DNA of 32,000 nt, taken from positions 46,397 through 78,396 of the forward strand of contig CAWDRP010000028.1 in the NCBI GenBank assembly GCA_963804755.1, written 5' to 3'. The stretch's first letter is position 1. Each line of letters begins with the position of its first letter. This stretch comes from an uncultured Acidobacteriota bacterium (GTDB lineage: Bacteria; Acidobacteriota; Terriglobia; UBA7540). Shown here piece by piece: positions 12,407 through 32,000 of the stretch. A program made the translations under genes and the position numbers. The notes below the pieces were generated by a model, which saw only the letters and a list, made by a program, of their open reading frames with translations, made no database searches and was not told the origin of the DNA.

Positions 12407-13432
12407 ATGGATCACCCATTGTGTCCGCGTTATACGTTCGACACGTTCGTCGCGAGCGGATATAACCAGTTTGCTTACGCGGCCGCGCAAGCCGTGGCGG
12501 CAAGTCCCGGGAAATCGTATAACCCGCTGTATATCTACGGCGCCGTGGGGCTGGGGAAGACGCATCTGATGCAGGCCATTGGCCACGCGATCAAGGGAAA
12601 ATGGCCGGAGATGCGCGTGGCCTATGTTTGCGCCGAGACTTTCAGCAACGAGCTCATCACCGCCCAACGCCACGATCGCCTGGATTCATTCCGCCATAGC
12701 TACCGGAGCTTGGACGTGTTGCTGATGGACAGCATCCACTTCATCCCCGGGAAGAAACCAACGGAAAACGAGTTCCTCCACATTTTCAAGCTCTTGCATC
12801 AGGAAGATAAGCAGGTGGTGGTCACCAGCGACTGCCCGCCCAAGGACCTCCCGGAGTTGGATGAGCGCCTGCGCGAATGCTTCGGCTGGGGGTTAGTCGC
12901 TGACCTGCAACCTTCTGACATTGAAACCCGGCGGGTGATCCTGGCGAAGAAATGTCAGGACCAGGGGATCGAGCTGCCCGACGATGTTAGCGAATTCATC
13001 GCGCAAAAGTTCGAGTCGAGCGTCCGTGATCTCGAAGGAGCTCTGGTGCGCGTGCACGCCTATGCTTCTCTCACCGGCGCGCCCATCACCCTCTCGATGG
13101 CGCAAAGCGTGCTCAAGAGCATGATTGACCCCATGGAGTCACGCATCTCCATCGAAGAAATCCAGCGCGCGGTCTGCCGGGAATTCGGCCTCAGCGTGCC
13201 ACAATTGAAGGCCAAGAGTGTGACCCGGCGGTTCTCTTACCCAAGGCAGATTGCGATGTACCTTGCCAAGGAGTTGACCTCCGCATCGCTGCCGCAAATT
13301 GGCAGGGAGTTCGGGGGAAAGCACCATACCACCGTGCTGCATGCGATCAACAAGATTGCAGAGCTGCGAGACTGTGACAGGGACCTGAACAGGCTGCTTA
13401 AGAAGCTAAGAGACAGTCTTGATACAGCGTAG
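12407..13432 (+). CDS. dnaA: DnaA-family protein comprising only domains III (AAA+) and IV (DNA binding), with domains I-II absent
   Basis: It begins directly at PRYTFDTFV. Walker A GAVGLGKTHL, box VII-like ERLRECFGWGL, sensor 2 SSVRDLEGAL, and domain IV YPRQIAMYLAKELTSASLPQIGREFGGKHHTTVLHA are present. The upstream gene ends at 12371, so there is no room for domains I-II. Confidence 0.85.
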   Translation: MDHPLCPRYTFDTFVASGYNQFAYAAAQAVAASPGKSYNPLYIYGAVGLGKTHLMQAIGHAIKGKWPEMRVAYVCAETFSNELITAQRHDRLDSFRHSYRSLDVLLMDSIHFIPGKKPTENEFLHIFKLLHQEDKQVVVTSDCPPKDLPELDERLRECFGWGLVADLQPSDIETRRVILAKKCQDQGIELPDDVSEFIAQKFESSVRDLEGALVRVHAYASLTGAPITLSMAQSVLKSMIDPMESRISIEEIQRAVCREFGLSVPQLKAKSVTRRFSYPRQIAMYLAKELTSASLPQIGREFGGKHHTTVLHAINKIAELRDCDRDLNRLLKKLRDSLDTA

Positions 13433-13714: not shown

Positions 13715-16700
13715 TCAATCCGATATGGGGGCCGCGGCGTTGCGCCACGGTGGGAATCCATCGGGGTCTGGCAGGCCGCTGACGCCGCTGAGCGCCTCCG
13801 CCAGCGCTTTCAGAAACTGGTAGTTCGCTTCGCCCAATCGCGAGCGCAGGTGATCAAGCATCGGTTGGACAGTCCAATCCAAGTGCGCATCAGGCGCGCG
13901 CAGGGCAGCTTTGATCTGTCCGACTATGGTGGTGGTGTCCGCCGCGTCCAACACGGTGAACACACACTGGTAGTACAAGATGCGCGGCATGGCATACGCT
14001 GGTGCTTCCTCACGAGCGGCCCAGGCCTGGTTAATCTCCTGCCGGGCCTCCGCCTCTCGATCCGTCATGAGCAGAAGTCGGGCAAGGTGGCAATGCGTGT
14101 CTGGCACTTCGAATCTCTCTTGCAGTAACCCTCGAAGCAACCCCTCAGCGCCAGAGTAGTCTCCACTGAGAATTCGATCCACGGCGTCCTGCCTACGCCT
14201 CCAGGGTTTTTGTTCTTCGTCAGCGTTCTTAAGCTCACGATTCAAGGCCTTTAACTTGCTCCTGAGCATATCCAAGATCAGACCGTCCCGGTTGCTCTGG
14301 GCAAAAGGAATAAGTTGCTCAATGATCTGTCGTGCTGCGACCAGTGCTTGTACATCCAGCAATAAGCAAGTCTTAGCAACATCTCGTCGGATATCAATTC
14401 CTTCGCCCCGCTTTCCGCCTCGTTCGAGTACGGCTGCGAGGCCGAGTCTTCCCAAAAGCGTGTTCAGACGGGATGGGCCCCAGCACTGAAGACACGCGGA
14501 GATCTCCTGCCGCAGTTGTGCCTCCGAATCCTGTAGCACGGGTTCCACGGGTTCAGCATAACTCCAGGTCAGTCCGTTAACATCGAATTGGAGCACTTCG
14601 CCGATCGAGGTGCCAACGGTCATTCGACCGGACACCGGGGAGATCGCGACAGCCGTAACCGGTACCGGCAGGTACGCAATGGTCAGGCACTCACCCGTCT
14701 CTATATTCCACACCCCAAACGCCTTGCCGGAGCACCTTGAGACGACACGCCGGCTGTCCGGCGTTACGCTCACGCTATCGCCAAACCCTTCCAGCACACG
14801 CAGGCACTCACCCTTCTCCAGGTCCCATACCCGCACCGTATTGTCCCAACTGGCGGAGACTGCGCGCTGGCCATCCGGCATTACGCTCACGCTGCTGACG
14901 CCCATCGTGTGCCCCTCCAGCACGCGCAGGCACCTCCCAGTCTCCAGGTCCCATACCCGCAGCGTTTCGTCCCAACTCCCCGACACCGCGCGCCGACCAT
15001 CCGGTGTCACACTCACGCACATAACCATGCCGTCGTGTCCCTCCAGCACCCGCAGGCAGGCCCCCGTTTGCAGATCCCATACTCGCAACGTATCGTCACG
15101 ACTCGCCGACACCGCGCGCCCGCCGTCCGGCGTCACGCTCACGCTACTGACGCCATCCGTGTGCCCCTCCAGCACGCGCAGGCACTCCCCAGTCTCCAGG
15201 TCCCACATTCGCAGCGTATCGTCCCAACTCCCCGACACCGCGCGCCGGCCGTCCGGCGTCACGCTCACGTTGCTGACGCCACTCGTGTGCCCCTTCAGCA
15301 CGCGCAGGCACTCTCCAGTCTCCGGTTTCCACACCCGCAACGTCTTGTCCCAACTCCCCGAGACCGCGCGCTGCCCATCCCGCGTCAGACCCAAGTCCAA
15401 GATGCCCCTCGTGTGCCCCTCCAGCGCCCGCCGGTCCGATCTCTTCTCCAGCTCCCACACCCGCAACGAGCCATCGAAACACCCCGAAACTGCGTTCCGA
15501 CCATCTGGCGTCACGCTCACGCCTTTTACATCAAACGTGTGTCCTTCCAGCACGCGCAGGCACTCCCCAGTCTCCAGGTCCCAGACCCGCATCGTTTCGT
15601 CCATACTCGCGGAGATCGCATGCAGGCCATCCGGTGTCACGCTCACGCATTCGACATCATTCGTGTGCCCCTCCAGCACCCGCAAGCACACCCCAGTCTC
15701 CAGGTTCCACACCCGCAAAGTCTTGTCTTCACTCGCAGAAACCGCCCGCTGGCCATCCGACGACACGCTCACACCACGAACCGCTTTGGCGTGCCCGTTC
15801 AGTACTCGCAGACACGCCCCAGTCTCTAAATCCCACACCCGCAACGTAGGCTCATAATTACCCACCGACACCGCGCGTCGGCCATCCGGCGTTATGCTTA
15901 CGCTCATGACTTCATTCTCGTACCCCTCCAGCACACGCAGGCACGCCCCTGTCTCGATGTCCCACACCCGCAACGTAAAGTCAGGACTTGCCTCGGTCCA
16001 TGGGTCGCCACTCCCCGACACTGCGCGTCGGCTGTCCGGAGTTACGCTCACGCAATTGATCCCTTCACTGTGCCCCTCCAGCTCACGCAGGCACACCCCC
16101 GCCTCAATGTCCCATAACAGCAACGTCTGGTCACAGCTCGCCGAAACTGCACGCCGGCCATCCGGTGTTATGTTCACGGAAGTGATCCAATGCGAGTGTC
16201 CCGCCAGCACGTGGAGGCACGCTCCCGTCTCCAGGTCCCACACCCGCAACGTCTTGTCCCAACTCCCCGAGACCGCGCGCCGACAGTCCGCAGACACGCC
16301 CACACACGTGACACATTCCGTGTGCCTTTCCATCGTTCTCATTAACGCGGGTCTCGGGTTGTATGGGTCACTGGGAAACCAACGCCGCGCGAGCAGCGGC
16401 ACATTCACGGCGGGCAAAACCCGGGTAGCCATCTCCTTCACGGGTCCACGAGGCGCATGGTTATAGGCTTGCTGCATTACGAATCCCAACCGAGTACCGA
16501 ACTGCTGCAGCGCGTATGTTTCCTGCTGAACGAAGCTTTGAAACTCCTGCATCCGATCCAGACGTGTAGGATTTGCCCGAATACGCTCGGCCTCCTGCTC
16601 GATGCGCTCTTCGCTCCAGGGCCACACCGAGCGCACGGGTTCCGGCGACACCGGCTCTGGTTCCGTGAGGGTTTCCCCGCGTGCCAGGCGGTCACGGCGG

Positions 16701-18946: not shown

Positions 18947-19171
18947 GGGGGCGGTCCACAGAAGACTTACTGCGATGTGCAACAGCTTTTTCGATGGTGG
19001 TTACTTTACACCCTCTTGAGCCATACAGGAATCGATGGAGAAAGTCATCACTGTTTGCGCGTTCTCCCAATCCCATTAATCGAATGAGGGATCGCAGGTT
19101 AGGCGGGAAGTTCGTCATTCGCGATCACCGGTCATCGAAGGTACGAAATGAAGACGTCAGCCATGGCCGGT

Positions 19172-19609
19172 TCACCCTTCCGAGGCTTCGGCGAGCAGCC
19201 GCTCGCGTGCGGCCGTGTACCTGGCGTGCCGACTGGCCGCATCGGGGTCGACGGGCAACGCGCGTTGCGGATCCAGGTTGTCAGCCAGGTCGGCCAGTTT
19301 CACCTGCCGCGCCAACGGATTCGTCGCGACTCGCTCGATCATGGCTTCATAGGTCTCTCCCCTCCGGCGCGTCAGGCAATCCACGGCTGCGCGAACCTGC
19401 TCGCTGTACCCGGCGGATTTCAAGTCGGACAGGGTGACGGAGGTATCTTCCAATACGTCATGCAACACGCCGACCCTGCGGGCGGCATCCTCGTTCTGCC
19501 GGAGCATGACGCGGAGGACATGCAGAATATACGGCTCCCCTCCCTTGTCCACCTGACCACGGTGAGCCTGGGAAGCGAGAATAATGGCGTCTTCAAGCGT
19601 GGGTGTCAT
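19172..19609 (-). CDS. Small HD-domain hydrolase of the RelA/SpoT (RSH) hydrolase type (small-alarmone-hydrolase-like)
   Basis: 145 aa. AHRGQVDKGGEPYILHVLRV, VGVLHDVLEDT and ARQVKLADLADNLD match the HD_4 / (p)ppGpp-hydrolase motif layout. The ATG at 19609 overlaps the upstream gene's stop (19593-19595) by 17 nt. Confidence 0.8.
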   Translation of the reverse strand: MTPTLEDAIILASQAHRGQVDKGGEPYILHVLRVMLRQNEDAARRVGVLHDVLEDTSVTLSDLKSAGYSEQVRAAVDCLTRRRGETYEAMIERVATNPLARQVKLADLADNLDPQRALPVDPDAASRHARYTAARERLLAEASEG

Positions 19610-21908
19610 TTTGTTCCAGTTTTACCAGGGAATAGCCGAGTTCGGGCAGGTACTTGAGAATTGCCTGGACCGTCGCCAAGTCGAGGGGGCGGACTTCGTT
19701 GGGAAGCTCGTCGAAGGGCAGAATGTTCGGGTTCAAACGGAGTGCCGGACTCTTAGGGCCATGCGTCCAGCCGCTTTGCAAAAGCTCGCGCAGCCAACGG
19801 TCATGTTCGAGACGCTGCAGCCTCTGCAGCTCATGCGGAGGGATCGCGGTCGATGGCGTGTTCGGGCAGCCGCGAACCAGCCGATAGCCACAACCGACCA
19901 GTGCTGTAAGCGTCGAGCGGACGCTGCTGCGGTTGCTTTCCTTCTTGTTGTCGGGCAGCTTGTCGAAACACACATCGTTGGGGTTCGGCTCTGGTCCGGG
20001 CACGATTTTTGCACGGTAGGCATCGTGAGTGGCGATCGCCAAGACCTCAATCTCGGCAAGGCCCAGCAACAGCTCTCTGACCCCGGTTTCGAAATCTGCG
20101 GTAACGTGGAGCCTCAACAGATCGCTGGAAGGCAATGCTGCTGCGCCAAATTGCGACGCCTTGGCCAGGTTGCTCATGCTGACGATCGACTCGATGGAGC
20201 GGGCACCGTGCTCGTAACGCGTGGCGCTAAGAAAGGCCCGGACTACACTCGCGTCAATGGCCAGATGCTTGGAGATGGGGTCAAGAAGATGAGGAGCGTG
20301 CCTCCGCACGTGACTTCTCAGCATGATGGCGCGGCGTATGATGTGCGCGTGGCCTGAGGCCCCTGCCTCCGGATTCGGGCCCTTGACATCAATATGTCCT
20401 CGCAGGCGGCTGACGAAGTCCGGCCCTTTTTGCTTTTTGAAATGATCATACTCAGGCGTGTCGGGTTTCTGCGCGTCGGGTTTCTTATGGAACTCGGCCA
20501 AGCTTGCGGACGTCCCCCCGGCAAAAACAAAAATTGCTTTTCCGAACGGGTAATGCATCCCCCCAGCATGGAACTGGGCATCCTGCATGGGGCAGAGGAA
20601 GTCTTTCAGCCACTTGAGGTCGCCGGTATCAAACTCGTCCCAGAAGACAAACGGCATCCGGCCCTGGGTGGCGGCATCGCGAATCCGGTGGAATGCCGTG
20701 TGCAGATCCTCGGGTTTCGCCATTTGCGACAGGTTGAAGTCGTAGCCCGACGCTGAGTCGCCAGCGACATCTCGCATCAGTTCTTTGACGGCGAATGACT
20801 TCCCGGAACCGGGCGGACCAAATACCGCGAAAGACAAGGGGCGCGTGTCTTTACTATTGCTAAGATAGGTGACGATCAGATTGCGGACCGAGTTGAGGCA
20901 CTCAATCTCGCTGCGGTCCACGGTGAAGTACTTTCCGAAGTTTGCTTTCGGCACGGGCTTTAGTGCGACCTCCGGACCGCGCAGGACGACATCGACGCCC
21001 GTTGAAACGACCGAATCAAGACCCGCTCCGGTGAAATCTTCCAGCAAGTCCGACTGCGTGGCCGGCCGGGCGCGGAGTTTCGTATCGTCGAAGGTGCCGT
21101 GCGGAAACGCCGTGAAGTAGGTCGAAGCCGGCTCGCCCTTTTCCGGGTGGAGTATCCTGCTGAGGTATTTCATCGAAAGATCGGGGCGGCTTTGTGAAAG
21201 GGAGCCGGCGCCCTTCGCATGGTACTCGCGCGCGGCTGCTAAGGCGCGGCCCAAGGCAACATATAAAGGGTAGGACCCGGGGTCCAGCACCTGCCGCACC
21301 AGCGCCGCGGCGCCAATCTCAACCGTGTGGCGAACCAAGCCGGGGCGTTTCGCCGCCCAGGTTCCCTCCAGAAAATCCGGATCATAGAGGCAGCGTTCAA
21401 ACTGCACGCGTTCCGAGAGTCCCCCGCCAGGGGTGCCGTGGAGCGGCAGGCGCGTGAAGCTGGCGGCCCCATCCGTGCCGAATACCACCACAACACGCCG
21501 AACGAGCGCCAGGCGGTTGGCGAATCGTTCCCCCAAAAGTTCCCCGGTCGTCTCCTCAATGGTCGCGTCCCACGAGAGTGGCGCCCTTATTGCCGCGCCA
21601 TATGAACGAAGGGTATCTGCCGACACGACTACGGTGAGCCGGTCACCACACACCTTCAGAAGATGTCCCCAAAGCTGGCCCTGAAACAGCGGCGCCACCG
21701 TGGTCAGAATGACATGCTCAGGCCTTCCACCCTGCCGGAGAGCCGCCGGCCAATTCTCCGGCGTGTCTCGGAATCCCAGGGAGCAGTCCGCAATCGCCAG
21801 GACGTCCGGACTGGCGGTTACGTCGCGTCCCCATGACAGCTTTGGTTTGCGCTGCCGCTTGAAGCCTAGTATTACTATGTTAAGTCGTATCCTCAAAAAT
21901 TTGTTCAA
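19593..21908 (-). CDS. AAA+ ATPase with a C-terminal tandem RyR-like module. This is the 3' portion of a gene interrupted by an IS; native sequence ends at 21869
   Basis: Walker A FGPPGSGKSFAV (~20786-20822) and Walker B FVFWDEFD (~20628-20651). The C-terminus IATHDAYRAKI...LPDNKKESNRSSV...GYRLV followed by LEHDRWLRELLQSGWTHG...LNPNILPFDELPNEVRPLDLATVQAILKYLPELGYSLV is RyR-domain-like. The first 13 codons of the track ORF (from a TTG at 21908) are IS terminal-repeat sequence, not native. Confidence 0.75.
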   Translation of the reverse strand: MNKFLRIRLNIVILGFKRQRKPKLSWGRDVTASPDVLAIADCSLGFRDTPENWPAALRQGGRPEHVILTTVAPLFQGQLWGHLLKVCGDRLTVVVSADTLRSYGAAIRAPLSWDATIEETTGELLGERFANRLALVRRVVVVFGTDGAASFTRLPLHGTPGGGLSERVQFERCLYDPDFLEGTWAAKRPGLVRHTVEIGAAALVRQVLDPGSYPLYVALGRALAAAREYHAKGAGSLSQSRPDLSMKYLSRILHPEKGEPASTYFTAFPHGTFDDTKLRARPATQSDLLEDFTGAGLDSVVSTGVDVVLRGPEVALKPVPKANFGKYFTVDRSEIECLNSVRNLIVTYLSNSKDTRPLSFAVFGPPGSGKSFAVKELMRDVAGDSASGYDFNLSQMAKPEDLHTAFHRIRDAATQGRMPFVFWDEFDTGDLKWLKDFLCPMQDAQFHAGGMHYPFGKAIFVFAGGTSASLAEFHKKPDAQKPDTPEYDHFKKQKGPDFVSRLRGHIDVKGPNPEAGASGHAHIIRRAIMLRSHVRRHAPHLLDPISKHLAIDASVVRAFLSATRYEHGARSIESIVSMSNLAKASQFGAAALPSSDLLRLHVTADFETGVRELLLGLAEIEVLAIATHDAYRAKIVPGPEPNPNDVCFDKLPDNKKESNRSSVRSTLTALVGCGYRLVRGCPNTPSTAIPPHELQRLQRLEHDRWLRELLQSGWTHGPKSPALRLNPNILPFDELPNEVRPLDLATVQAILKYLPELGYSLVKLEQNDTHA

Positions 21909-23252
21909 ACTTCGTTCCGCAGAAGGGACAGAGTCCGCTCCATCTCACCAGCCAGGGCTGGATCGTGCGGAGAATCTGTTCCCACGTCGCACCAGAAGTT
22001 TTTTTTACGCCGTAAGTAGACGGTCAGGATAAAGAGATAAGCCACGGCGGAAAGCACCAAGTGATGATGAAAGCCTCGCCACGAGCGGCCTTCGAAATGG
22101 TCCAACCCCAAGTCATCCTTGGAGCGCTGGAAGTATTGTTCGATGTGCCAGCGGGAACGGCTCAGTTTCAAGCAACGGGCCTTGGTGGGAGGAGCGTGGA
22201 GATGGGCCAAGTAATAATGATAGGGCGCAGGGTCCCCTGCCGGCCAGTCCACCACCAGCCAGACTTTTTCCAGTTCGCCCCCCGCGTGGCGCAAGTCGTG
22301 TTGCAGAAAAACCTCTCGCCAAGCCAGCCGCGTGCGCTGGGTTTGGCCGCCCGCCGTTACCCAAGAACACTTCTTCCATTCGTTCTCCGGGATGCGGCCG
22401 GTCAACTCCGCCAAGGTGGTGGCGGGAGGTTCCCCGTCACAGACGTAACGGCGCACCCGCTTGACCTCGGTCCGCACTTCGCGGTCCCATCCCTTGAGCG
22501 CCTGCCCGTCGACTTGCAGAAAAAACTCCATGTCCAACGCCCGCACCCCGGCGCGAAAATCCGCGTTGTTGCCGTAGGCGCTATCCCCCAAGACCGGTGC
22601 CGGAGGAACTCCGTCGTGCCGCGCTTGGCGCAGGATCCCCAGCGCCAGCTCCGGCTTGGTGGCAAACCTCACTTCCGGCGGGACTCCGGCGGCCTGGCAG
22701 CGTTCCCGGTCGGCGGTCCAGCGCTCGGGCAGATACAGCCGCCCGCCCACCGGCGCGGCAATCCATCCGTCGCTCACCACCACTTCCACGCTCACTTGAC
22801 AGTTGGCCTGCTTGCCCACCGCCCCACAATATTGATGCGAAACTCCCACCGAGTGCGAGCCCTGTTTGACCCAGCCGGTTTCATCCACCACCCAGGCCTC
22901 CAGCGGCTCCAAGTGCGGAATGATCTCCTGCCGGATCGCGCGCCACAACTCTTCCTCGCTCCAGGGACTGTCGGTAACAAACTGCTGCAGACTTTGCGAG
23001 TCCACACCCAGGCGCTCGGCCATGGGGATGATCGATTTGCGCTGCCCCGGCATCAACAGCCCTTCCACGTAGCGTGTGGCCGCCACGCGCCGCTCACTTC
23101 GGCCCAGCCCGGCAATCAGCGGATTCAAAAACTCAAGGAATTGTGCCACGCTTTCTTTCCAAAGCTTGCCATTCCAGCGCATGGGCTTCATGGGCCCATG
23201 CTAAGTCATTCGAAGGAGAATTTCAAGAACTACTTAACATAGTAATACTAGG
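21865..23252 (-). mobile_element. IS701-family-like insertion sequence (~1.38 kb) inserted into the AAA+/RyR gene
   Basis: Perfect 21-bp terminal inverted repeats CCTAGTATTACTATGTTAAGT (21865-21885) and ACTTAACATAGTAATACTAGG (23232-23252). CTAG at both junctions (21866-21869, 23248-23251) is consistent with a 4-bp target duplication. There is a single transposase ORF. Confidence 0.85.
21905..23191 (-). CDS. DDE transposase, IS701-family-like
   Basis: 428 aa. The N-terminal ...GRSERRVAATRYVEGLLMPGQRKSIIPMAERLGVDSQSLQQFVTDSPWSEEELW matches the characteristic IS701/DDE_5-type N-terminus. It lies between the 21-bp terminal inverted repeats. Confidence 0.8.
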   Translation of the reverse strand: MKPMRWNGKLWKESVAQFLEFLNPLIAGLGRSERRVAATRYVEGLLMPGQRKSIIPMAERLGVDSQSLQQFVTDSPWSEEELWRAIRQEIIPHLEPLEAWVVDETGWVKQGSHSVGVSHQYCGAVGKQANCQVSVEVVVSDGWIAAPVGGRLYLPERWTADRERCQAAGVPPEVRFATKPELALGILRQARHDGVPPAPVLGDSAYGNNADFRAGVRALDMEFFLQVDGQALKGWDREVRTEVKRVRRYVCDGEPPATTLAELTGRIPENEWKKCSWVTAGGQTQRTRLAWREVFLQHDLRHAGGELEKVWLVVDWPAGDPAPYHYYLAHLHAPPTKARCLKLSRSRWHIEQYFQRSKDDLGLDHFEGRSWRGFHHHLVLSAVAYLFILTVYLRRKKNFWCDVGTDSPHDPALAGEMERTLSLLRNEV

Positions 23253-23560
23253 TGCCTGTCGATCCGCCAGATGCGATCCTTAGGCTCGAGCTCCTCACCC
23301 TGCACGGGTGCACACGGCGACCACAACGCCACGGCGCGGGCGGCTGCCGCTGTTGGCAGCGGGGCGGATACGGTCCAGTCAACATTCTGCGGCTGCTCCA
23401 ATGCCATCTGGATATAGTCGGCGAGCCGCCACGCCCCTCCGTGTTCCTCCTGAACGTCGAGTGAACAGTTAGCGCCTGCTCGGCAAGCCGCCATCGCGTC
23501 GTCAACAAAGATGTTCTCCTGAATCAGCAAGTCACCGGCAACAACAACTGTTTTCGCCAT
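23252..23560 (-). pseudogene. 5' fragment (103 codons) of the IS-interrupted AAA+/RyR gene
   Basis: ATG at 23560 is preceded by GGAGGTGGGAACG. It reads MAKTVVVAGDLLIQENIFVDD...EEHGGAWRLADYIQMAL...RIWRIDRH, then runs into the IS end. After conceptual IS removal it joins in frame to LGFKRQRKPKLSWGRDV at 21869. Confidence 0.8.
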
Positions 23561-23906
23561 CGTTCCCACCTCCGGAGAGATGAATAGCTGATGAACACGT
23601 CGTACACGGCTTTACCCCCGATGAGCACTCACGCGGTGCGTCCGCGCAGCGGAGCCGCCCATCACCATCCGGCAGGAGGTGACAGTTGCTATGGCGGGCC
23701 AGCATATCACAAGCAACAAGCCACCTACCGCACCGAATGCACGATGGACCAACCTGCTGCCGTTTACAGCCTGTGTCGGAGGCAGTGACCGGCTGCCGCG
23801 CAACAGACATGCCGCGAGAAGGACTCTTGTCTCAAGCCTGCTCCTGCCTCATAATGCCACGCGGCAGCTGTGGGCCGTACACTCCGCATGCTTGATCGGG
23901 TGAGCC

Positions 23907-26900
23907 ATGAGCGATGCCCATCCCCTGGGGCGTCAGATCCGCGTTTTTATCTCTTCGACCTTCCGCGACATGCAGGCGGACCGCGATGTGCTGGTGAAGA
24001 AAACCTTTCCCCAGCTTCGCAAGCTGTGTGAGTCGCGAGCCGTGACTTGGACGGAGGTGGACCTGCGCTGGGGCATCACCACCGAGCAGCAGGCCGAGGG
24101 GAAAGTGCTGCCCTACTGCCTGGCCGAAATCGAGCGCACCCGGCCGTTCTTCATCGGCCTGCTGGGCGAGCGCTACGGCTGGGTGCCCGAGAGCATTCCG
24201 GCGGACCTTCTCGAACAACAGCCTTGGCTCCGCGAGCACCTCGAGCACTCGGTCACCGAGCTCGAAATCCTGCACGGCGTTCTGAACAACCCCGCCATGG
24301 CCGACCGGGCGCTGTTCTACTTCCGCGACCCGGCCTACGCGGCTGCGGCGCCGGGCGGGAAAAAGGACGACTTTGTCGAGACGGGACCGGACGCCGAGCG
24401 GATGCAGGGGAAGCTCAGGAGCCTCAAGAAGCGTATCCGCACGGCCGCCGAGCAGAAGAAGCTTAAGCACCCACCACGCGAAAACTACGCCGATCCCGAG
24501 TCCTTGGGTGCCTTGATTTTGGCGGACTTCACTCAGATCATCGACGAACTGTACCCGGCCGCAGAAGTCCCCGATCCCCTCGACCAGGAAGCCGCGCGGC
24601 ACGAGGCTTACGCGCGAAGCCGACGGTTCGGATTCGTTGGGCGCGGAGAGCTGCTGCGCCGCCTGAACGAACACTGCACCGCGCCTGGCCAGCCACTGGT
24701 TCTCACGGGTGAATCAGGCTGCGGGAAATCTGCTCTGCTGGCCGAATGGGTGCACGAGTGGCGCGAGACGCATTCGGACGATTTGATTCTCCAACACTAC
24801 ATTGGCAGCACGCCGGATAGTGCTGACTGGCCGCGGCTGGTGCGCCGTATCCTGGCCGAAATCAAACGTACCTACGCCATCACCGGCGATATTCCGGCCC
24901 AGCCCGAAGCCCTGCGGAACGCCCTCAGCGAGTGGATCATCAAAGCCTCCGGTTCGCATCGGATTGTGTTGGTGGTCGACGCGCTGGACCAACTGCCTGA
25001 CGGCGGAGCGGCCCGACAACTCGGCTGGCTGCCAACTGTCTTTCCCGCCAATTTCCGAGTGCTCATTTCCAGCCTTCCAGGTGAGGCGCTGGATGCCTTG
25101 CGCAAGCGAGGCGGGGCAGAATTGCACGTGCCGTTGTTTGGCAAGGCTGACATTGCTCCCGCAGTGGCCGCTTACTTCCAGCTATTTGGCAAAACGCCGC
25201 CGAAGGAAATGGTAACGAGGTTGGAATCCGTTCCGGCTGCGTGCAACGCTCTCTACCTGCGCACCGTGCTGAACGAATTACGCCAGTTCGGCGAATACGC
25301 CAAGCTGCAAGCTACCGCTAACGATTATCTATCCTCCCCCAGCCTGCCAGAACTCTTCGACCGCATCCTCGCGCGCTGGGAGACGGACTTTGGTGCTGAT
25401 TTGGTTCGCACAAGTTTGAGCCTGGTCTGGGCGGCGCGCCGCGGCCTCTCCGAAGCTGAAATCCTTGATTTGCTCGGTGAGCACTCAAGTCACGATTGGT
25501 TCACGGCTAATTCCAAGAGTTCAGTAACTGAGCTGCGTAAGCTACTCGATGAGCTTCATACACCTCGTGCGCCACTGCCGCGCGCAAGATGGACACCTTT
25601 CTTTCTGGCATCTGAGGCGGAAGTCACTAATCAGGCAGGCGTATTAACCTTCTCGCACTCGCACTTCCGCGACGCCGTGGAGAAAAGGTACCTGCCGGGT
25701 GCAAAAAGCAAACGGGCGGCCCATGAGCGTTTGGCACTGTATTTTGATTCGTTGCCACTTCCAGCCCGCATCGGTGTGGACGGTTCAATCCACATCGAAC
25801 CGGATGCCGTTGCATCGTCCCGTGCACTTGATGAAGAGCCGTGGCAACTTCAGGCTGCCTGCCGGTGGGAGGCTCTAGCCGATCACTTAAGTTTCATGCC
25901 GGTCTTTATAGCGGCATGGGGAACGGGTCGAGAGTTCGAATGGATGCAGTATTGGCAGAGCCTCCTCACGGCAGCAAAAGTAGGTGTTGCTTCACCTGTA
26001 GACATTCCGGCCCTTTATCTCACCGCTTTCCATAGGCTGGGTCCTGCTGACAGAGCTCTTACAGGTGGGATGGTGGGCCAATTTTTGTATGCGCTCGACT
26101 ACTTTGACGCCGCCCTGGAGTGCTTCGAAAAACAAGGCAAGGGAGACGCAGTGGTTGGTGACCCATTTCTTCGCGCCATCACCCTTAATGACAAAGGATT
26201 GGTCGAGCGAGACCGCGGCAACGACCAACAAGCACTGGCACTTTTTGAGGAAGCTGCAGCTTTAGTTGAAAATGGCGGGCCAAGAAAGGGAGAACTTCAA
26301 TCTCAGAGAAACGAGCACCGCCTCCTCGCGTCAATCTTAATGAACGAGGCAAACTCGCAAAAAGAGATCAATGGCACGGCCGGGTGTCGATCGCTGCTTG
26401 ATCGCGCCTTAGCGCTCATGAAGGAGACCACGGGAGAACGGTCGCCGGAAGTTGCCACAGTACTTCAAGAGACGGGAAATCTCGCGATGACAGAAGGGAA
26501 TCCCGAGAAGGCGCTGGACTTGCACCTCCAGGCACTCGCCATCCGGCGTGAGGGACTTGGTCTCGATCACCATGATGTTGCCTTGAGTTTCGGCAACGCC
26601 GCGAACGCATTGGGTGAAATGGGACATTATTACTATGCAACCTGCTTATGGGAGCGGTCGCTGAGGATACTGAAAAAGACGGTCGGCGATGGACATCACT
26701 TTTCCCGGGCGGTAGCCACCCCGCTCGCTCAATGCGCGGCTCGGGCAGACGCAGCAGCGAAGAGCAGTTCCGGGTTTGGTATAGTGTTGCTCGTTTTCAA
26801 TTCGCTGCCGCCGACCGAGAATCCTCCCGACCCGGGCACATCGGAAGGGGCGCAGCTCATGGCACGAGCTGTCAGTGACACTCTGATTGAGATTTGGGAC

Positions 26901-27701
26901 GATTGTCTAGCATACAGCTCGATTCCAGTCCTGATCGTCTCATTTCCGGGCTATGAAGATGCCGTAAGGCTTGCTACCGAGAAAGCAATTGCCAGGCGAT
27001 ATTCGCAAGGCTTCCTGAGCCGGCTGCGGATCCCTTCGGTCCGTGCCAACATCACGCTGCCGATTGGAGCGATGCGCCTGATGTCGGTAAAACGCAAGTT
27101 CCTAAATTGGCTGCAAGAGCACAAGGTCGACGTCCTCATGATCAAACCGGTCACGTCTTGCGGAGCCACGCTCGATCGCCATATCCTGGGCTATGTTCGA
27201 CGGAGTTTTAGCGAGGGCTCAAGCGGCCATTCCAAACTGCAGCCAAAAAGCTCCGACGAGTCCAGTATGGACCTTCGCCCGATAGCGATTGAAACTGTTC
27301 CTTTGGACCAATTCGCCGGGCCCATCTTGGCGCTTTACACAGGTGATAATGACCGTCGTCCGTGCATCTTGACGGCCTCGGAAGTAAGGCGGCAGAACTA
27401 CTGTCCTCAAGCAGCCGACTCACGGGCGACTGGAGTGATTTACGCAAACATGCCCGCCATCCGGCGGTGGTTGAGCACGCATTCAGGCAGCGGTTTGACC
27501 CCGCTTGAACGCTGGTCGATAGATCTATTCCACTCTATTGCCTCGAGACCCAGGGAGGAGCAGTATCACGTATTCGAATCGCTGCTCTCGGCCTTGATTT
27601 TGCTCATAAAGACGAAGCCCATCAGTTTTCCATCTGAACGGGGTATCAGGGGTTTTCAGGAGCAAAGCCTGAACCGGGAAATCGAACGGCTGCTGGCCTG
27701 A
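23907..27701 (+). CDS. NWD1-like STAND NTPase: DUF4062-type N-terminus + NACHT-like P-loop NTPase + TPR (TPR_12-like) repeats + ~310-aa unrecognised C-terminal module
   Basis: N-terminus IRVFISSTFRDMQADRDVLVKKTFPQLRKLCESRAVTWTEVDLRWGI...LLGERYGW. Walker A LVLTGESGCGKSALL (~24698-24740) and Walker B IVLVVDALDQL (~24961-24995). TPR_12-like units appear around 26050-26720 (e.g. ATVLQETGNLAMTEGNPEKALDLHLQALAIRRE). The C-terminal part matches nothing I recognise. Confidence 0.9.
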   Translation: MSDAHPLGRQIRVFISSTFRDMQADRDVLVKKTFPQLRKLCESRAVTWTEVDLRWGITTEQQAEGKVLPYCLAEIERTRPFFIGLLGERYGWVPESIPADLLEQQPWLREHLEHSVTELEILHGVLNNPAMADRALFYFRDPAYAAAAPGGKKDDFVETGPDAERMQGKLRSLKKRIRTAAEQKKLKHPPRENYADPESLGALILADFTQIIDELYPAAEVPDPLDQEAARHEAYARSRRFGFVGRGELLRRLNEHCTAPGQPLVLTGESGCGKSALLAEWVHEWRETHSDDLILQHYIGSTPDSADWPRLVRRILAEIKRTYAITGDIPAQPEALRNALSEWIIKASGSHRIVLVVDALDQLPDGGAARQLGWLPTVFPANFRVLISSLPGEALDALRKRGGAELHVPLFGKADIAPAVAAYFQLFGKTPPKEMVTRLESVPAACNALYLRTVLNELRQFGEYAKLQATANDYLSSPSLPELFDRILARWETDFGADLVRTSLSLVWAARRGLSEAEILDLLGEHSSHDWFTANSKSSVTELRKLLDELHTPRAPLPRARWTPFFLASEAEVTNQAGVLTFSHSHFRDAVEKRYLPGAKSKRAAHERLALYFDSLPLPARIGVDGSIHIEPDAVASSRALDEEPWQLQAACRWEALADHLSFMPVFIAAWGTGREFEWMQYWQSLLTAAKVGVASPVDIPALYLTAFHRLGPADRALTGGMVGQFLYALDYFDAALECFEKQGKGDAVVGDPFLRAITLNDKGLVERDRGNDQQALALFEEAAALVENGGPRKGELQSQRNEHRLLASILMNEANSQKEINGTAGCRSLLDRALALMKETTGERSPEVATVLQETGNLAMTEGNPEKALDLHLQALAIRREGLGLDHHDVALSFGNAANALGEMGHYYYATCLWERSLRILKKTVGDGHHFSRAVATPLAQCAARADAAAKSSSGFGIVLLVFNSLPPTENPPDPGTSEGAQLMARAVSDTLIEIWDDCLAYSSIPVLIVSFPGYEDAVRLATEKAIARRYSQGFLSRLRIPSVRANITLPIGAMRLMSVKRKFLNWLQEHKVDVLMIKPVTSCGATLDRHILGYVRRSFSEGSSGHSKLQPKSSDESSMDLRPIAIETVPLDQFAGPILALYTGDNDRRPCILTASEVRRQNYCPQAADSRATGVIYANMPAIRRWLSTHSGSGLTPLERWSIDLFHSIASRPREEQYHVFESLLSALILLIKTKPISFPSERGIRGFQEQSLNREIERLLA

Positions 27702-27731
27702 CATGCTCGGTAACGCCGCTCCAGGTGAGCT

Positions 27732-27965
27732 ATGGGTGGTATCCCTCTCGCTGGCCGGTTGACCAGCCTGAATAATCTTCCCGCCTTGCTCTGCAGCAAG
27801 GGCGACTACGCGGCGGCCGAGGCCCTATATCGTCGCGGCTTGGAGGTACGCGAGCGGGTGGTATCTCCGTCCCAGAATCCAACCCGGCGGCGATTTGCCC
27901 GCAGCCTTCGTCGCCGCTCTCAATGACCGCAGCAACCTGCCCGATCTGGAGCACCTCGAAACCTA
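27732..27965 (+). pseudogene. Decayed fragment of a TPR_12-type repeat coding sequence
   Basis: ...LTSLNNLPALLCSKGDYAAAEALYRRGLEVRERV matches the TSLNNLAxLLxxxGDYxxAExLYRRAL consensus. It then loses frame; the next frame reads ...AALNDRSNLPDLEHLET*. There is no credible start and it is bracketed by stops. Confidence 0.4.
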
Positions 27966-28435
27966 GCGAATGGCGACCGCTATGCCGCTCGATGCGCCTT
28001 GGCCGGAAGGATCTTGATGCGTCTGTGTGACAACTCTGAAACTCACCGGCGGAACCGGGTTTCCTACCGGCAGGAAAAAACGAGAAAAAAAGTGCAGCGA
28101 CGCGCTGCATGCGGGGCAATTTGTCGTCCGTGGCGATGTCTCTGGCCTTCCTCCTGCAAGCTTGGGGAGCAAGCGGCCGATGCGCCGGGCGAAATCACCC
28201 AGCCGCGCGCCTTGCCGAGGCTATGGAGCAAAGCTTACAGGTAAGTACGGGGAGCACGCAAAGCGAAACTGCCCGAACCCGAGGCGGCGCCGCTAACCCA
28301 GAATGCTACCGAAAACACAGCTTGTTAGTGATTTTTGTGAGATAGGTCAAAGTTATATGCTAAACAAAACAAGCCACTTGCCTGTTACACCGAGCTCTGA
28401 AGGGGAAACGCGCGAAATAAAAAAACGCAGGAATA

Positions 28436-28550
28436 TCCCAGAATGTTTATGAAAACAAAGGGCGTAAAACAAGGTGCTGGAGATGTCCCAGAATGTATAT
28501 GAAAATAAAGGGCGTAAAAAAGGTATCCCAGAATGTATATGAAAACAAAT
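28436..28550 (+). repeat. Three direct copies of TCCCAGAATGTWTATGAAAAYAAA in the AT-rich region upstream of the RelA/SpoT-fusion gene (possible operator/iteron sites)
   Basis: Copies start at 28436, 28486 and 28526 (spacing 50 and 40 bp). The first two extend as ...GGGCGTAAAA. A GC-richer degenerate copy, CCCAGAATGCTACCGAAAACACA, lies at 28297-28319. Confidence 0.8.
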
Positions 28551-28702
28551 CTAGTTAGGCAGCTGGCGCTACGCCCGAAATCAAGAATTCTTCCGGTTTT
28601 TTGAGGCTTCTGTACCTCGAAACGCAGCTTTTTGCATGCCAAACAGAGCTAGTTCGCAGTTTGCTACAGCCATTCATGTAGATGCGCATTCCGGGGGAAT
28701 CG

Positions 28703-31234
28703 ATGACTAATGATGAACGGCAGTGGCACCGCGACCGGTGCACAGAATACAAGGCGGAGTCTTCCATCTACCAGGCTTACGCCGGCTTTCTCGAAAAGGT
28801 CCTGAAGGTGGCTTGCCGCGACCTGGCGCCGATGGCGATCGTGCAGTCGCGCCCCAAGAGCTTCGCGAGCTTCGCCGAGAAGATGGCGCGCAAGGCGAAG
28901 AAGTACATGTCGAAGGGCATTGGCCCCACGGATCTCTGCGGCGCGCGCGTCATCACGGAGACGCAGGCGGAGGTAGACTCCATCTGCGCAGTGATTCGCG
29001 AGAACTTCGAGATCGACGTCGAGAACAGCCTGGATGTGCGGAGCAGGCTGAAGACGGAAGAGTTCGGTTATCTCTCCGTCCACTACGTCGTGCAGTTCAA
29101 GGGTGAGACGATGTTCGGCCTCTCCGTCCCGCCGGAAATCGGCAAGCGCAAGGCGGAGATCCAGGTGCGCACCCTGCTCCAACACGCCCACGCCAGTGTC
29201 AGTCATGACCGCATCTACAAGACCAGCCTGAAGGTGCAGGAACACTTGAAACGGGACCTGGCACGCGTCGCGGCGCTGCTGGAAGAAGGAGATGAGGCGT
29301 TTGGCAAGTCCGTACGCGAACTCGATGCCTACAAGCTCCACTACGGTGCCTATATGCACAGCAAGCGGTTAGCGGAGGAAACGGAGATTCTCGAGATAGT
29401 GCTGGAGAATGAAACCGACCCCTCGCAGCGGCCGCTGGTTGCTCTGCGTCTCGCCCAATTGGCCCGCGCCACCGGGAACTACGCGCGAATCGTGGAACTG
29501 CTGCAACCCTTCCTCGGCGCGGCGGGCAAGTGGGAAACCGAAGTCCTGGTCGAGCACGGGCATGCGCTTTGTCGCGTCCACGCCGACGAGCCGTCGAGTG
29601 ATGGATTCCTAAAGGGATGCACCGAAATTGAGCTTGCGCTCAAAGAAGCCGCCGGTAACCTGCAAACGCGTGCCTTGGGTTATCGCGCTTGGGCGCACGC
29701 GCAGATTCCCAACAACGAGACGAAGGCGCGCGACACTTACCGCGCTGCACTTGATGCGGACCCATCGAACCCCTTCCACCTGGCCTCGTTCCTGGAATAC
29801 GAGATCTTCCTGGGTGAGAAACTGGGCTTGCGCAATGCCCTGGCGCCGGGCTTCCAGCAGGCCATCGGCCGGTGCCGCGACTACATCGATGCGGGGATTG
29901 AAGTACCCTGGTCGTTTTTCACCATCGGGCGACTTGAGCTGCTTTTGGAATGCCCACTTGAAAGCCTGGCAGCGTACGCCAAGGCCATTCAGCTCTGCCT
30001 CGAAAAGGACAGCACGGTGCCCGCCTCGGCGCTGGAAGCGGAGATCACATTCGTGCACCGAATCAATCGCGGCCGGGAGATGCCGGAGTCGCATGCGGGC
30101 GTTCTGCAGTTGCTCCTGCTCGGCGAAGCCGTGTGGAAAGGCCAACCGCCGACGGGCTTGTCAGCCAAGCGAAAATCCTTCACCTCGCCGGTGGTCATCC
30201 TGGCGGGAGGCACGGCACAGGCCTTCCAGGCGAATATCGAGCGTTTCCGGCCAGTGGTGCTCGGGGCGTTCAAGGGCTTCAGGGGAACGCTCATCTCAGG
30301 AGGCACCAGCGCCGGTATTGCCGGGATGGCCGGCGAGATCGCGGTGGCGGAGAGGGCGGAAACAGGCGGACCGCTGGAAGTTCTCGGTTACATTCCGCGC
30401 AATCTTCCTTACGACCAGCCCGTCGACTTGCGGTATACCGACTGGGTGCCGTCGGAAGGGCTCAGCTATGGACCTGCGCACGCGCTCCAGTATTGGACCG
30501 ACCTGCTGTTAGCGGGCGTTAAACCACAGGACGTTCGCCTGCTGGGAATTGATGGCGGACCGATCTCGGCCTTCGAATACCGTCTGGCGCTGGCCCTTGG
30601 GGCTCCGGTGGGAGTGATGGAACCGCCGACGCGAGCGGCCGCGCAGGTTCTGGCCGATCCGGATTGGCGCGAATGCGGCGGCCTGATCGGCTTGCCTGAG
30701 GACGCTCGGAGTGTGCAGGTATTCCTGCAGCCTCCCAGTCCCGCCTTGACGAGCGAGCAGGTGGAAGCGGCCGCGCAGAAAATCCACGCCGCGTACCTCG
30801 AGGAGAAGCACTACGTGAATCCTGATCCCGCTATGCAACCGTGGGGGAAACTTGACGAACGCTTGCGGAACTCAAACCGCATGCAAGCGGCAGCCATTGC
30901 GGCTTTCCTGGAACGCGCGGGCTTCCACATTGAGCAGGCGGCAGCCGGGGACGAGGCGCTGGAATTTACAACTGACGACATCGAGTTGCTGGCTGAGATG
31001 GAACACGGTAGGTGGGTCGTCGAACGGCTGCAGCAAGGGTTTCGCTACAACGACGTGCGGGATATCACAAAGAAACTCCACCCTGATCTGGTGAGCTGGA
31101 GCAAGTTACCCGAAGGTGTTAGGGACTGGGACCGCTCCGCGGTGCGCAAATGGCCTGGGCTGTTGCGGGATGCAGGCCTCGCAATAAGGAGGACAGGCTG
31201 CCAGCCGCGGTCGTCGCGTCCAGTGCGGAGTTAG
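28703..31234 (+). CDS. Multidomain fusion: RelA/SpoT-type nucleotide pyrophosphokinase (small alarmone synthetase-like) + helical/TPR-like region + LOG/SLOG-like Rossmann domain + tandem RyR-like module
   Basis: Synthetase motifs: QSRPKSFASFAEKMARK, CGARVITETQAEVDSICAVI, GYLSVHYVVQF, AEIQVRTLLQHAHASVSHDRIYK. SLOG/LOG-like: VVILAGGTAQ..., LISGGTSAGIAGMAGEIA, VLGYIP, LLGIDGGPISAFEYRLALALGAPVGVM. Ryr-like: AAQKIHAAYLEEKH...LDERLRNSNRMQAAAIAAFLERAGFHI and EMEHGRWVVERLQQGFRY...LHPDLVSWSKLPEGVRDWDRSAVRKWPGLLRDAGLAI. The ATG at 28703 is preceded by GGGGGAATCG; an alternative ATG lies at 28682. Confidence 0.85.
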   Translation: MTNDERQWHRDRCTEYKAESSIYQAYAGFLEKVLKVACRDLAPMAIVQSRPKSFASFAEKMARKAKKYMSKGIGPTDLCGARVITETQAEVDSICAVIRENFEIDVENSLDVRSRLKTEEFGYLSVHYVVQFKGETMFGLSVPPEIGKRKAEIQVRTLLQHAHASVSHDRIYKTSLKVQEHLKRDLARVAALLEEGDEAFGKSVRELDAYKLHYGAYMHSKRLAEETEILEIVLENETDPSQRPLVALRLAQLARATGNYARIVELLQPFLGAAGKWETEVLVEHGHALCRVHADEPSSDGFLKGCTEIELALKEAAGNLQTRALGYRAWAHAQIPNNETKARDTYRAALDADPSNPFHLASFLEYEIFLGEKLGLRNALAPGFQQAIGRCRDYIDAGIEVPWSFFTIGRLELLLECPLESLAAYAKAIQLCLEKDSTVPASALEAEITFVHRINRGREMPESHAGVLQLLLLGEAVWKGQPPTGLSAKRKSFTSPVVILAGGTAQAFQANIERFRPVVLGAFKGFRGTLISGGTSAGIAGMAGEIAVAERAETGGPLEVLGYIPRNLPYDQPVDLRYTDWVPSEGLSYGPAHALQYWTDLLLAGVKPQDVRLLGIDGGPISAFEYRLALALGAPVGVMEPPTRAAAQVLADPDWRECGGLIGLPEDARSVQVFLQPPSPALTSEQVEAAAQKIHAAYLEEKHYVNPDPAMQPWGKLDERLRNSNRMQAAAIAAFLERAGFHIEQAAAGDEALEFTTDDIELLAEMEHGRWVVERLQQGFRYNDVRDITKKLHPDLVSWSKLPEGVRDWDRSAVRKWPGLLRDAGLAIRRTGCQPRSSRPVRS

Positions 31235-31677: not shown

Positions 31678-31752
<75 letters not shown>

Positions 31753-31807: not shown

Positions 31808-32000
31808 TTACATCACGCGCGGGCTTTTTTCTGACTGGTTCACCATGTCGAGCCTGCTTTCGACTGGCGATTGCGTATAGACGTTCTGGTTCACATCGAG
31901 ACTGTGGCCAAGCTGATCGGCGACCAGCTTGCCATCCACCCCGAGCGCCTTCATCAAAGTTGCATGGGTGCGGCGCATGACCAGAAAATTCACCCAGTCA
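31808..32000 (-). CDS. Tyrosine recombinase / phage-type integrase, C-terminal end (5' part lies beyond the window)
   Basis: ...MRRTHATLMKALGVDGKLVADQLGHSLDVNQNVYTQS carries the R...LGH...Y catalytic-region pattern of tyrosine integrases. The frame is open to base 32000. It lies 56 bp from the tRNA-Gly 3' end. Confidence 0.75.
   Translation of the reverse strand, partial: DWVNFLVMRRTHATLMKALGVDGKLVADQLGHSLDVNQNVYTQSPVESRLDMVNQSEKSPRVM

Follow-up and report, generated by a model that had tools for sequence, protein, structure and literature searches.

Related systems

Several described systems, among them Thoeris, toxSAS/CapRel, Tas1/Apk–Aph1, Swarozyc and RyDEP, each resemble in part a gene cluster that we describe here from an uncultured Acidobacteriota bacterium (contig CAWDRP010000028.1). 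Open reading frame (ORF) calls place five long genes, A to E, and one insertion sequence (IS) within 13.7–31.2 kb of the 32,000-nucleotide stretch that was analysed (hereafter the window; Table 1). A and D encode STAND NTPases with a DUF4062 head, B an HD hydrolase, C an ATPase with RyR repeats, and E an alarmone synthetase with SLOG and RyR domains. We believe, with a probability of about 0.5, that the cluster is a single modular nucleotide-signalling system in which E, C and B form the core and A and D are facultative STAND input sensors; most likely it works as a growth-arrest or defence switch controlled by a nucleotide signal. All genes and domains of the original prediction, a reading made from the letters of the window, are present, with their ORFs in the positions it had given.

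Thoeris uses SLOG as the 3'-cyclic ADP-ribose (3'cADPR) sensor of ThsA. The likeness to our cluster lies in a TIR-type NAD+-processing enzyme encoded together with a SLOG protein that could read a messenger derived from ADP-ribose (ADPR) and switch on a growth-arresting enzyme, and in the TIR and SLATT-like genes that accompany the C family in other loci. In contrast to the stand-alone ThsB of Thoeris, the NADase head here, DUF4062, is part of a NACHT STAND sensor protein and would have to be the producer of the signal. An alarmone synthetase takes the effector position, and there are in addition an extra RyR Repeat12 (R12) domain and a PfkB-AAA-RyR protein. None of the eleven Thoeris types in a 2025 survey has an alarmone synthetase, an R12 domain, a PfkB-AAA protein or a DUF4062-STAND generator.

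With toxSAS and CapRel the cluster shares a RelA/SpoT-type synthetase of the small-alarmone-synthetase (SAS) fold and a dedicated hydrolase, and the long C-terminal extension of E could restrain its enzyme. E, of 850 amino acids (aa), differs from CapRel in having the nucleotide-sensor domains SLOG and R12 instead of the protein-sensing pseudo-ZFD. Unlike in toxSAS, the hydrolase is of the Nudix or Aph1 type, and in the window it is translationally coupled to C, not to E; a further difference is that viral contigs carry only a synthetase domain of ~200 aa. Compared with Tas1/Apk–Aph1 (PMC10083569), B matches Aph1 over its whole length, including the specificity signature, and co-occurs with a RelA/SpoT-type synthetase. 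E, however, is a toxin neither secreted nor fused to MuF, its sequence stands nearer to RelQ/RelP, and the passages of that paper covered here mention neither an AAA+/RyR nor a STAND context for Aph1.

A and D share a DUF4062 TIR-like head, including a conserved glutamate, with Swarozyc and with NWD1, NWD2, NPHP3 and TEP1, and as in NWD1, NPHP3 and TEP1 the head is followed by NACHT and then by WD40 or TPR repeats. Swarozyc, by contrast, has a helix-turn-helix (HTH) auxiliary domain that binds the phage portal, and no NACHT; A and D, with the glutamate-bearing head and a NACHT plus WD40/TPR build rather than the HTH single-protein architecture, are not filed here as Swarozyc. Among the human DUF4062 proteins only TEP1 showed NADase activity (bioRxiv 10.64898/2026.05.01.722283), and for Swarozyc and the animal DUF4062 proteins we found no described link to alarmone enzymes.

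RyDEP and the C-terminal repeats of E and C share the PF02026 domain and the H-x-x-W...D ligand residues, at the spacing of RyDEP H75/W78/D117. While RyDEP is a small protein that viruses use for counter-defence, as an enzyme or a sponge, R12 is here host-encoded, fused to an enzyme or an ATPase, and presumably a receptor; moreover, position 800 of E, equivalent to H100, is serine in most E proteins. A last parallel is the animal channel TRPM2, which is gated by ADPR and combines an LSDAT-type SLOG with a Nudix domain, fused in TRPM2 and operonic for E. The output of E would be that of an enzyme, not of a channel, and the bacterial Nudix looks MutT/NudG-like.

No description of the system was found in the literature searched or in PADLOC, although the 2015 SLOG/LSDAT survey (Burroughs et al., NAR) may mention a RelA/SpoT-LSDAT combination; nor did the literature searched hold any pairing of “RyR domain” with alarmones.

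A conserved core with variable STAND genes

Conservation was followed in two sets of 80 loci, one centred on homologues of E and the other on homologues of C, in which ORFs were called and clustered and the cluster representatives annotated. E, C and HD occur together as adjacent genes in all five loci of the window clade (the window, L001, L003, L164 and L165), with E at 90% (L165), 79% (L001) and 57% (L003) identity to the window copy. The HD orthologue adjoins C in L001, L003 and L165; in L164, C and HD are fused (P0158), and the fusion gene directly follows E. HD orthologues are found only in loci with E, namely in 4 loci of the E set versus 0/80 of the C set.

L001 has both STAND genes, and its D segment is 46% identical to that of the window, versus 67–79% for C and E. 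In the window, D precedes E on the same strand at a distance of 980 bp, and pairs of a STAND gene followed by E are also found in L001, L025, L062 and L080, with no such pair in L165 or L164. Our best reading of this pattern is a conserved core made up of E, C and B, with A and D facultative and fast-changing. The functional linkage of all five genes, put forward in the original prediction, is supported in part, in that E, C and HD co-occur in every locus of the clade and TIR/DUF4062 genes recur across phyla; the association is nevertheless looser than a single island, and the STAND genes are facultative.

The synthetase-SLOG-RyR protein E

E is organised into a synthetase (residues 1–220), a helical TPR-like region (225–486), a SLOG domain (500–685) and two RyR/R12 repeats (690–838). 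The synthetase and RyR assignments were confirmed both by Pfam (RelA_SpoT PF04607, 4.7e-15; RyR PF02026, 1.9e-11) and by a structure model (pLDDT 85, pTM 0.78). In Foldseek searches the N-terminus has the small-alarmone-synthetase fold, with SAS1, RelQ and RelP matched at TMt 0.6–0.77, and the synthetase motifs R57, K59, S63, D84, G87, R89, E159, Q161, R163 and T164 are invariant in 24 homologues down to 38% identity, so that E shows both the motifs of a RelA/SpoT synthetase and the SAS fold.

The region at ~500–685 matches a single Pfam family to any extent, LSDAT_prok (PF18171), which is found in 19/20 homologues (best 6.8e-9); the window copy alone gives 0.044. Residues 504–682 are modelled as alternating strands and helices in a Rossmann-like arrangement, and glycines 509, 540, 541, 545, 548 and 625 are invariant. 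The LOG/SLOG call thus holds at the family level, by profile and by fold, and is of the LSDAT_prok type. A sequence search of the PDB with the SLOG sub-alignment returned nothing meaningful, only spurious designed TIM barrels.

The C-terminal ~200 aa superpose in Foldseek on RyR Repeat12 crystal structures carrying AMP-PCP or ADP. R12 domains bind ADP, ATP and 2'/3'cADPR, according to PDB titles and PMC13232231, and phage RyR-domain proteins bind or cleave 2'/3'cADPR via H75, W78, H100 and D117 (PMC13232231). The spacing of H775, W778, H800 and D817 in E is exactly that of these four residues in RyDEP. H775 and D817 are present in 24/24 sequences and W778 in 21/24 (aromatic in 24/24), while position 800, histidine in the window copy, is histidine only within the window clade. 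Profile, tandem-repeat fold and ligand residues together place the repeats of both E and C in the RyR/Repeat12 family, and sequence matches of the repeats to RyR in the PDB reach 1e-28 for E and 4e-39 for C.

The Aph1-type hydrolase B

The start of B overlaps the stop of C by 17 nucleotides (19593–19609), as had been noted together with an RSH-type HD hydrolase; both points stand, and the latter can be refined. Pfam HD_4 matches B below threshold (20 bits), whereas the match to Aph1, the founding member of the (p)ppApp hydrolases, in the crystal structure PDB 7SMG has an E-value of 2.6e-24 and is ungapped over B residues 4–121. The residues given for the (p)ppApp specificity of Aph1 in PMC10083569 (D24, R96, D116, R119, K133 and Y134) map at a constant offset of +3 to D21, R93, D113, R116, R130 and Y131 of B, the last two of which lie beyond the printed alignment and are placed by that offset. 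Five of the six are identical, K133 being replaced by arginine, and the metal site is present at H50-D51. With its compact HD domain, metal site and specificity signature, B falls within the Aph1 family and is predicted from these residues to be a (p)ppApp-specific hydrolase.

Gene C and its interruption by IS701

Gene C is split after codon ~105 by an IS701-family element, with 756 codons 3' of the IS junction, and the split suspected from the letters of the window is therefore real. The transposase scores 353 bits with NF033540 (cutoff 150) and 5.7e-64 with DDE_5, the terminal inverted repeats are 24 nucleotides long and 96% complementary, and the 4-bp target CTAG is duplicated at 21866–21869 and 23248–23251. 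In silico excision of the IS together with one CTAG copy (1382 nucleotides) gives an uninterrupted ORF of 861 aa that is 92% identical to the intact orthologue P0241 straight through the junction, where the sequence RIWRIDRHL|GFKRQRKP is identical in P0241; the bar marks the junction. The 5' part matches positions 1–104 of the profile hidden Markov model (HMM) of the C family. In L165, the closest relative, the flanks are contiguous, without an IS at this site, which together with the IS701-type DDE transposase, the inverted repeats and the 4-bp duplication places the element in the IS701 family. The insertion is also recent, because neither fragment of C has acquired another stop codon, identity to the intact orthologue is still 92%, and the flanks in L165 are contiguous.

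The original description of C as an N-domain of no recognised type followed by AAA+ and two RyR repeats was right for the latter two, and the N-domain can now be given a fold. Foldseek with a model of the orthologue P0124 (67% identical to C; pLDDT 80.7, pTM 0.85) matches the N-terminal ~420 aa to the ribokinase/PfkB fold (HldA, ribokinase and nucleoside kinase; E-value ~1e-6, probability 1.0, TMt ~0.5). Pfam finds no PfkB match in this domain, and its motif reads D-x-T-G-x-G-L-[DE], with the acidic residue of G-A-G-D displaced by one position. As the model agrees with PfkB in fold, while neither the sequence profile nor the catalytic aspartate is found, we call the domain PfkB-like and claim no kinase role. 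The AAA+ module, to which Pfam gives weak matches, has an intact Walker A (GPPGSGKS) and Walker B (FWDEFD); the RyR repeats match Pfam RyR at 2.2e-11 and, in the P0124 model, the R12 structures of RyR.

The STAND proteins A and D

Both STAND genes have the domains originally read from their translations. In A, Pfam finds DUF4062 (3.7e-13), NACHT (2e-9), a weak HTH_NWD1, WD40 (1.6e-118) and a C-terminal TPR_19; 13 clear WD motifs and a closing blade make up the ~14 blades. The likely start is the ATG at 18946 (MPIATRTF...), the Walker A reads GPSGCGKS, and the C-terminal TPR-like cap shares 37% identity with the end of the D-like protein of L001. In D, Pfam finds DUF4062 (1.1e-10), NACHT (1.6e-7), a weak HTH_NWD1 and TPR_12 (2.1e-15). 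Beyond residue ~917 its TPR array is replaced by a module of ~365 aa (26598–27701) with no Pfam match, for which 5.8 billion proteins held only 3 homologues (45–52% identity), each after TPR_12 repeats. D is thus a chimera, and the module may serve STAND proteins as an uncommon cap for ligand sensing or as an effector. Of the decayed TPR relics noted earlier, one unit just behind D is confirmed, 55–74% identical to TPR units of the D orthologue of L001.

A NACHT P-loop, winged helix, repeat sensor and N-terminal effector domain give A and D the build of NLR/Avs-like STAND proteins, although no PADLOC Avs model matched, and A has only a weak match to mad8. DUF4062 is described as a TIR-like NADase yielding ADPR plus nicotinamide and occurs in about 1–15% of genomes overall (bioRxiv 10.64898/2026.05.01.722283). 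The glutamate of its C-x-x-E-I motif is present in A, in D and in at least 90% of 29 related DUF4062 domains; it is equated with E97 of KpSwz by motif position, not by alignment to KpSwz.

The E and C families across genomes

The E family comprises at least 120 protein clusters, with 190 matches in a one-genome-per-species collection, and is spread over many bacterial phyla as well as Bathyarchaeia and Methanomicrobia. The C family comprises at least 949 proteins, and homologues of both are conserved over their full length. In 47 of the ~80 loci the gene immediately beside E, and on its strand, encodes a Nudix protein; among the 68 loci that have flanks on both sides this holds for 40. No decayed Nudix gene was found in the six frames of the window with an HMM of 38 E-adjacent Nudix proteins.

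Of the ~80 E loci, 35 have a TIR or DUF4062 gene no more than 10 kb from E, and of the 80 C loci 39 have one at that distance from C (44–49%), often as the next gene on the same strand, and TIR-type NADase genes are strongly enriched beside both RyR-bearing families. DUF4062-STAND genes are present in 30 E loci, and 13 of 38 such genes are within 1 kb of E. Among 137 randomly chosen mid-sized E neighbours from 66 loci, TIR_2, TrkA_N, Sigma54_activat, RyR and DUF4062 were the most frequent Pfam families, the others being mostly seen once or twice. The C loci hold E in 6 cases, proteins with transmembrane (TM) helices and RCK, with or without RyR, in ~11, and SLATT-like membrane proteins in ~9, and there are recurrent same-strand arrays of C, a small partner, TM-RCK(-RyR) and DUF4062/TIR(-STAND). 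The small partner, a protein of ~195 aa directly downstream of C in ~34/80 C loci (L126, L135, L139, L141, L152, L161, L162 and others), is the commonest neighbour of C; it has the motifs G-x-T-G-H-R, A-E-G-A-D, W-D-G and G-G-T and no Pfam match. A SLOG-like identity, raised by its motifs and a weak ShosA match (E-value 0.0016), was dropped, since a profile-profile comparison with the SLOG of E gave a probability of 0.5% and Pfam gave none.

The synthetase, HD, SLOG and RyR assignments, on which the original prediction had staked itself, hold, and homologues of the genes co-occur in other genomes. A classic defence-island setting is not seen, the neighbours of E being mostly housekeeping genes. 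A prophage or phage origin of full-length E or C was also rejected: 2.9 million viral contigs contain neither, only relatives of the ~200-aa synthetase domain and one partial C. Neither B nor the TM-RCK-RyR and SLATT-like proteins are covered by a PADLOC model.

Several further proteins were seen in these loci. Proteins of ~600 aa with N-terminal TM helices, TrkA_N/RCK and a C-terminal RyR occur beside both E and C (L069:12819–14663, L050:12843–14699, L144, L154 and others), 16 E loci having TM-TrkA_N-RyR proteins; they look like nucleotide-gated channel effectors. Sigma-54-interaction-type AAA+ proteins of ~580 aa stand upstream of E or of E-Nudix in 7 loci (for example L004:7786–9519, L005:7891–9594, L058:5051–6790 and L077:7404–9194). 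In P0013 (936 aa), an E-family protein, the RyR end is replaced by a Na+/H+-exchanger membrane domain. A stop-to-stop ORF of 1156 aa directly upstream of E in L087 matches the C family plus Nudix, and is either a fusion or two genes merged by ORF calling. Full-length E homologues (35–37% identity) with an adjacent Nudix are also found in archaeal metagenome-assembled genomes (L017, L047 and L052, Bathyarchaeia; L072, Methanomicrobia), which, if the binning is correct, implies transfer between domains.

Proposed mechanism and alternatives

On our best reading the cluster would run as a Thoeris-like cascade, in which a NADase-STAND sensor makes an ADPR-type signal, RyR and SLOG domains read it, E makes (p)ppApp, and an Aph1-type or Nudix hydrolase resets the system. 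A trigger, most plausibly a phage component, would be caught by the repeats of A (WD40) or D (TPR), upon which the NACHT domains would oligomerise and activate the TIR-like DUF4062 heads, which would cleave NAD+ to ADPR or an ADPR-derived messenger. This adenine/ribose nucleotide would be bound by SLOG and R12 in E, and by R12 and the ribokinase-like domain in C. Freed from autoinhibition, E would pyrophosphorylate ATP or ADP to (p)ppApp, draining ATP and arresting growth, and B would hydrolyse (p)ppApp, setting a threshold and resetting the system, a role that the E-adjacent MutT/NudG-like Nudix may take in most other lineages. Since E abuts a Nudix gene or co-occurs with an Aph1-type HD gene, its partner is one of two unrelated types of pyrophosphohydrolase. 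C would be a shared hub or regulator, and more likely an activator than the sole inhibitor of E, because this genome tolerates an IS-disrupted C with E intact.

The observed basis of this scheme consists of domain identities, intact catalytic and ligand motifs, cross-genome linkage, the C-HD fusion and the IS event; all ligands, products, the order of the steps and the trigger we infer, as we do a role in biological conflict or defence. That the cluster represents an undescribed form of NAD-derived immune signalling, with a messenger from DUF4062-NACHT or, in other lineages, TIR proteins, R12 and LSDAT-type SLOG as readers, a (p)ppApp synthetase as output (membrane or channel effectors in sister systems) and the PfkB-AAA-RyR protein as hub, is a tentative proposal, and the odds are against it.

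If it is true, an alarmone synthetase would join the known outputs of NAD-derived immune signalling, and RyR Repeat12, so far known from phage counter-defence proteins and animal calcium channels, would gain a host-side receptor role. Two large families now annotated just as “RyR domain-containing”, E and C, would be given a context, and (p)ppApp metabolism, the physiological triggers of which are obscure, would be linked to a candidate upstream signal. Bacterial operons would hold, in one pathway, the prokaryotic counterparts of NWD1/NPHP3/TEP1, of TRPM2 and of ryanodine-receptor modules, and this co-occurrence suggests a testable evolutionary hypothesis as to why, in animals, all three are touched by cADPR/ADPR biology. 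The proposal could be tested with one reconstructed five-gene cluster.

A number of observations weigh against a single signalling system. L165, at 91–95% nucleotide identity, is without the D-containing segment (23763–28692) and without A downstream of B; L164 has no STAND gene within 17 kb; and in L001, A is inverted relative to the window. Just 10 E loci (~12%) have a C-family gene at a distance of up to 10 kb, and the commonest partner of E, Nudix, is not in the window and, in matches that are all below threshold, is MutT/NudG-like and not ADPR-pyrophosphatase-like. Apart from these partners, E is flanked by assorted housekeeping genes and not by classic defence islands, no PADLOC model matches C, and E matches only the candidate model PDC-S33. 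Because the synthetase of E is closest to (p)ppGpp synthetases of the RelQ/RelP type, its product could be (p)ppGpp, or its target a tRNA. Plain ADPR is the product of those DUF4062 enzymes that have been studied; they are reported to be effectors that deplete NAD+, with no signalling role described (bioRxiv 10.64898/2026.05.01.722283), and STAND-NADase proteins can act alone by NAD+ depletion, needing no downstream partner. Finally, gene C is broken in this genome.

One alternative, which we rate somewhat short of an even chance, is that, whatever the ancestral function, the system in this genome is a disabled remnant, in which IS701 removes C and may lower the expression of B and A downstream. 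Beside the split of C after codon ~105, the replaced C-terminus of D with a TPR relic 3' of its stop codon and the lower GC content over 25–29 kb are consistent with decay. The fragments of C, however, have no further stops and retain 92% identity to the intact orthologue, as expected of a recent insertion. The other four genes are of full length and keep their motifs, and even the unusual module at the C-terminal end of D has been conserved, in three other proteins.

Less probable and in our view doubtful, though the main rival of a single signalling system, is that two or three independent systems stand side by side in a shared variable hotspot with no transfer of signal between them, A and D being self-contained NAD+-depleting abortive-infection proteins of the Avs/NLR kind, and E with B, with or without C, a self-regulated alarmone toxin-antidote module like toxSAS-SAH or a fused CapRel. 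STAND genes are gained and lost around an unchanged core at ~92% identity, the orientation of A differs between relatives, D evolves much faster than C and E (46% identity versus 67–79%), many loci have E with a Nudix gene only, and the published DUF4062 proteins are NAD+-depleting executioners, all of which fits separate systems. Yet in many phyla no other recurrent neighbour is as frequent beside E and C as TIR/DUF4062 genes, often as the next gene on the same strand and far above the per-genome background of 1–15%, and this adjacency argues against pure coincidence; furthermore, SLOG and R12, domains with known NAD-derived ligands, are both found in E, and R12 is found in C.

A physiological second-messenger circuit, serving stress, dormancy or development in bacteria of complex lifestyles and not directed against phages, in which E would tune alarmones to adenine-nucleotide/NAD status through R12 and SLOG, would agree with the mostly housekeeping surroundings of E, the lack of full-length E or C in the viral contigs, the Sigma-54-type activator genes that recur beside E and the description of R12 of animal RyR1 as an ADP sensor in the title of PMC13642953, but is improbable; the patchy distribution crossing domains (Bathyarchaeia, Methanomicrobia), the TIR, DUF4062-STAND and SLATT-like partners, the fast turnover of STAND alleles and the IS knock-out of one component are typical of conflict systems.

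Layout and surroundings of the cluster

D and E are divergent from the minus-strand genes C-B-A (Table 1). The compositional patchiness reported earlier is seen as a dip in GC content over 25–29 kb of the window. Rfam models matched neither a riboswitch nor any other RNA within the cluster, and promoter and terminator scans of the cluster gave chance-level results.

Table 1. Positions in the window, strand and content of the genes and elements of the cluster
Feature	Position	Strand	Content
Gene A	13715–18982	-	DUF4062-NACHT-HTH_NWD1-WD40-TPR_19 STAND NTPase
Gene B	19172–19609	-	Predicted Aph1-family HD hydrolase, 145 aa
Gene C, 3' part	19593–21869	-	Remainder of PfkB-like domain, AAA+ ATPase, two RyR (Repeat12) repeats
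IS701-family element	21870–23247	-	Transposase ORF 21905–23191; interrupts gene C
Gene C, 5' part	23248–23560	-	First ~105 codons, N-terminus of PfkB-like domain
Gene D	23907–27701	+	DUF4062-NACHT-NWD1-type winged helix-TPR_12-rare C-terminal module
TPR relic	27759–27884	+	One TPR unit of 42 aa just 3' of the stop codon of gene D
Gene E	28682–31234	+	Alarmone synthetase-helical-SLOG-2x RyR/R12

The flanking genes are ordinary and encode a TonB-type outer-membrane protein, an FG-GAP/ASPIC protein, TPR proteins, a sulfatase and a DnaA paralogue. To the right, a tRNA-Gly(CCC) at 31678–31752(+) is followed by an integrase fragment at 31822–31999(-) that runs off the window and is the C-terminal end of a tyrosine recombinase (RRTHATL...LGH...Y; Phage_integrase E-value 0.0092). 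The tRNA/integrase junction earlier noted nearby is thus present, but it was rejected as a boundary of the cluster, since the tRNA stands between the cluster and the integrase; the element integrated at tRNA-Gly probably extends rightward, away from the cluster. The position corresponding to the tRNA-Gly of the window, behind the E orthologue, is occupied in L001 by a tRNA-Gln.

The DnaA paralogue (12407–13432(+), 341 aa) scores 446 bits with TIGR00362, above cutoff, over profile positions 102–436 only, and is without domain I. It is probably not the origin-linked dnaA, as the cumulative GC skew has no inflection nearby. Further to the left are two Acido-Lenti-1 small RNA motifs (RF01687; 4281–4328(-) and 4661–4708(-)), 380 nucleotides apart and both just over the gathering score, which flank or overlap the 3' end of a 285-aa ORF at 4681–5538(-). 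Like the acidobacterial names carried by some homologues, these motifs suggest that the DNA comes from the Acidobacteriota. An ORF at 2238–2918(+) has a weak match to an IS200-like Y1 transposase (E-value 3.3e-5) and is possibly a decayed IS200/IS605 element.

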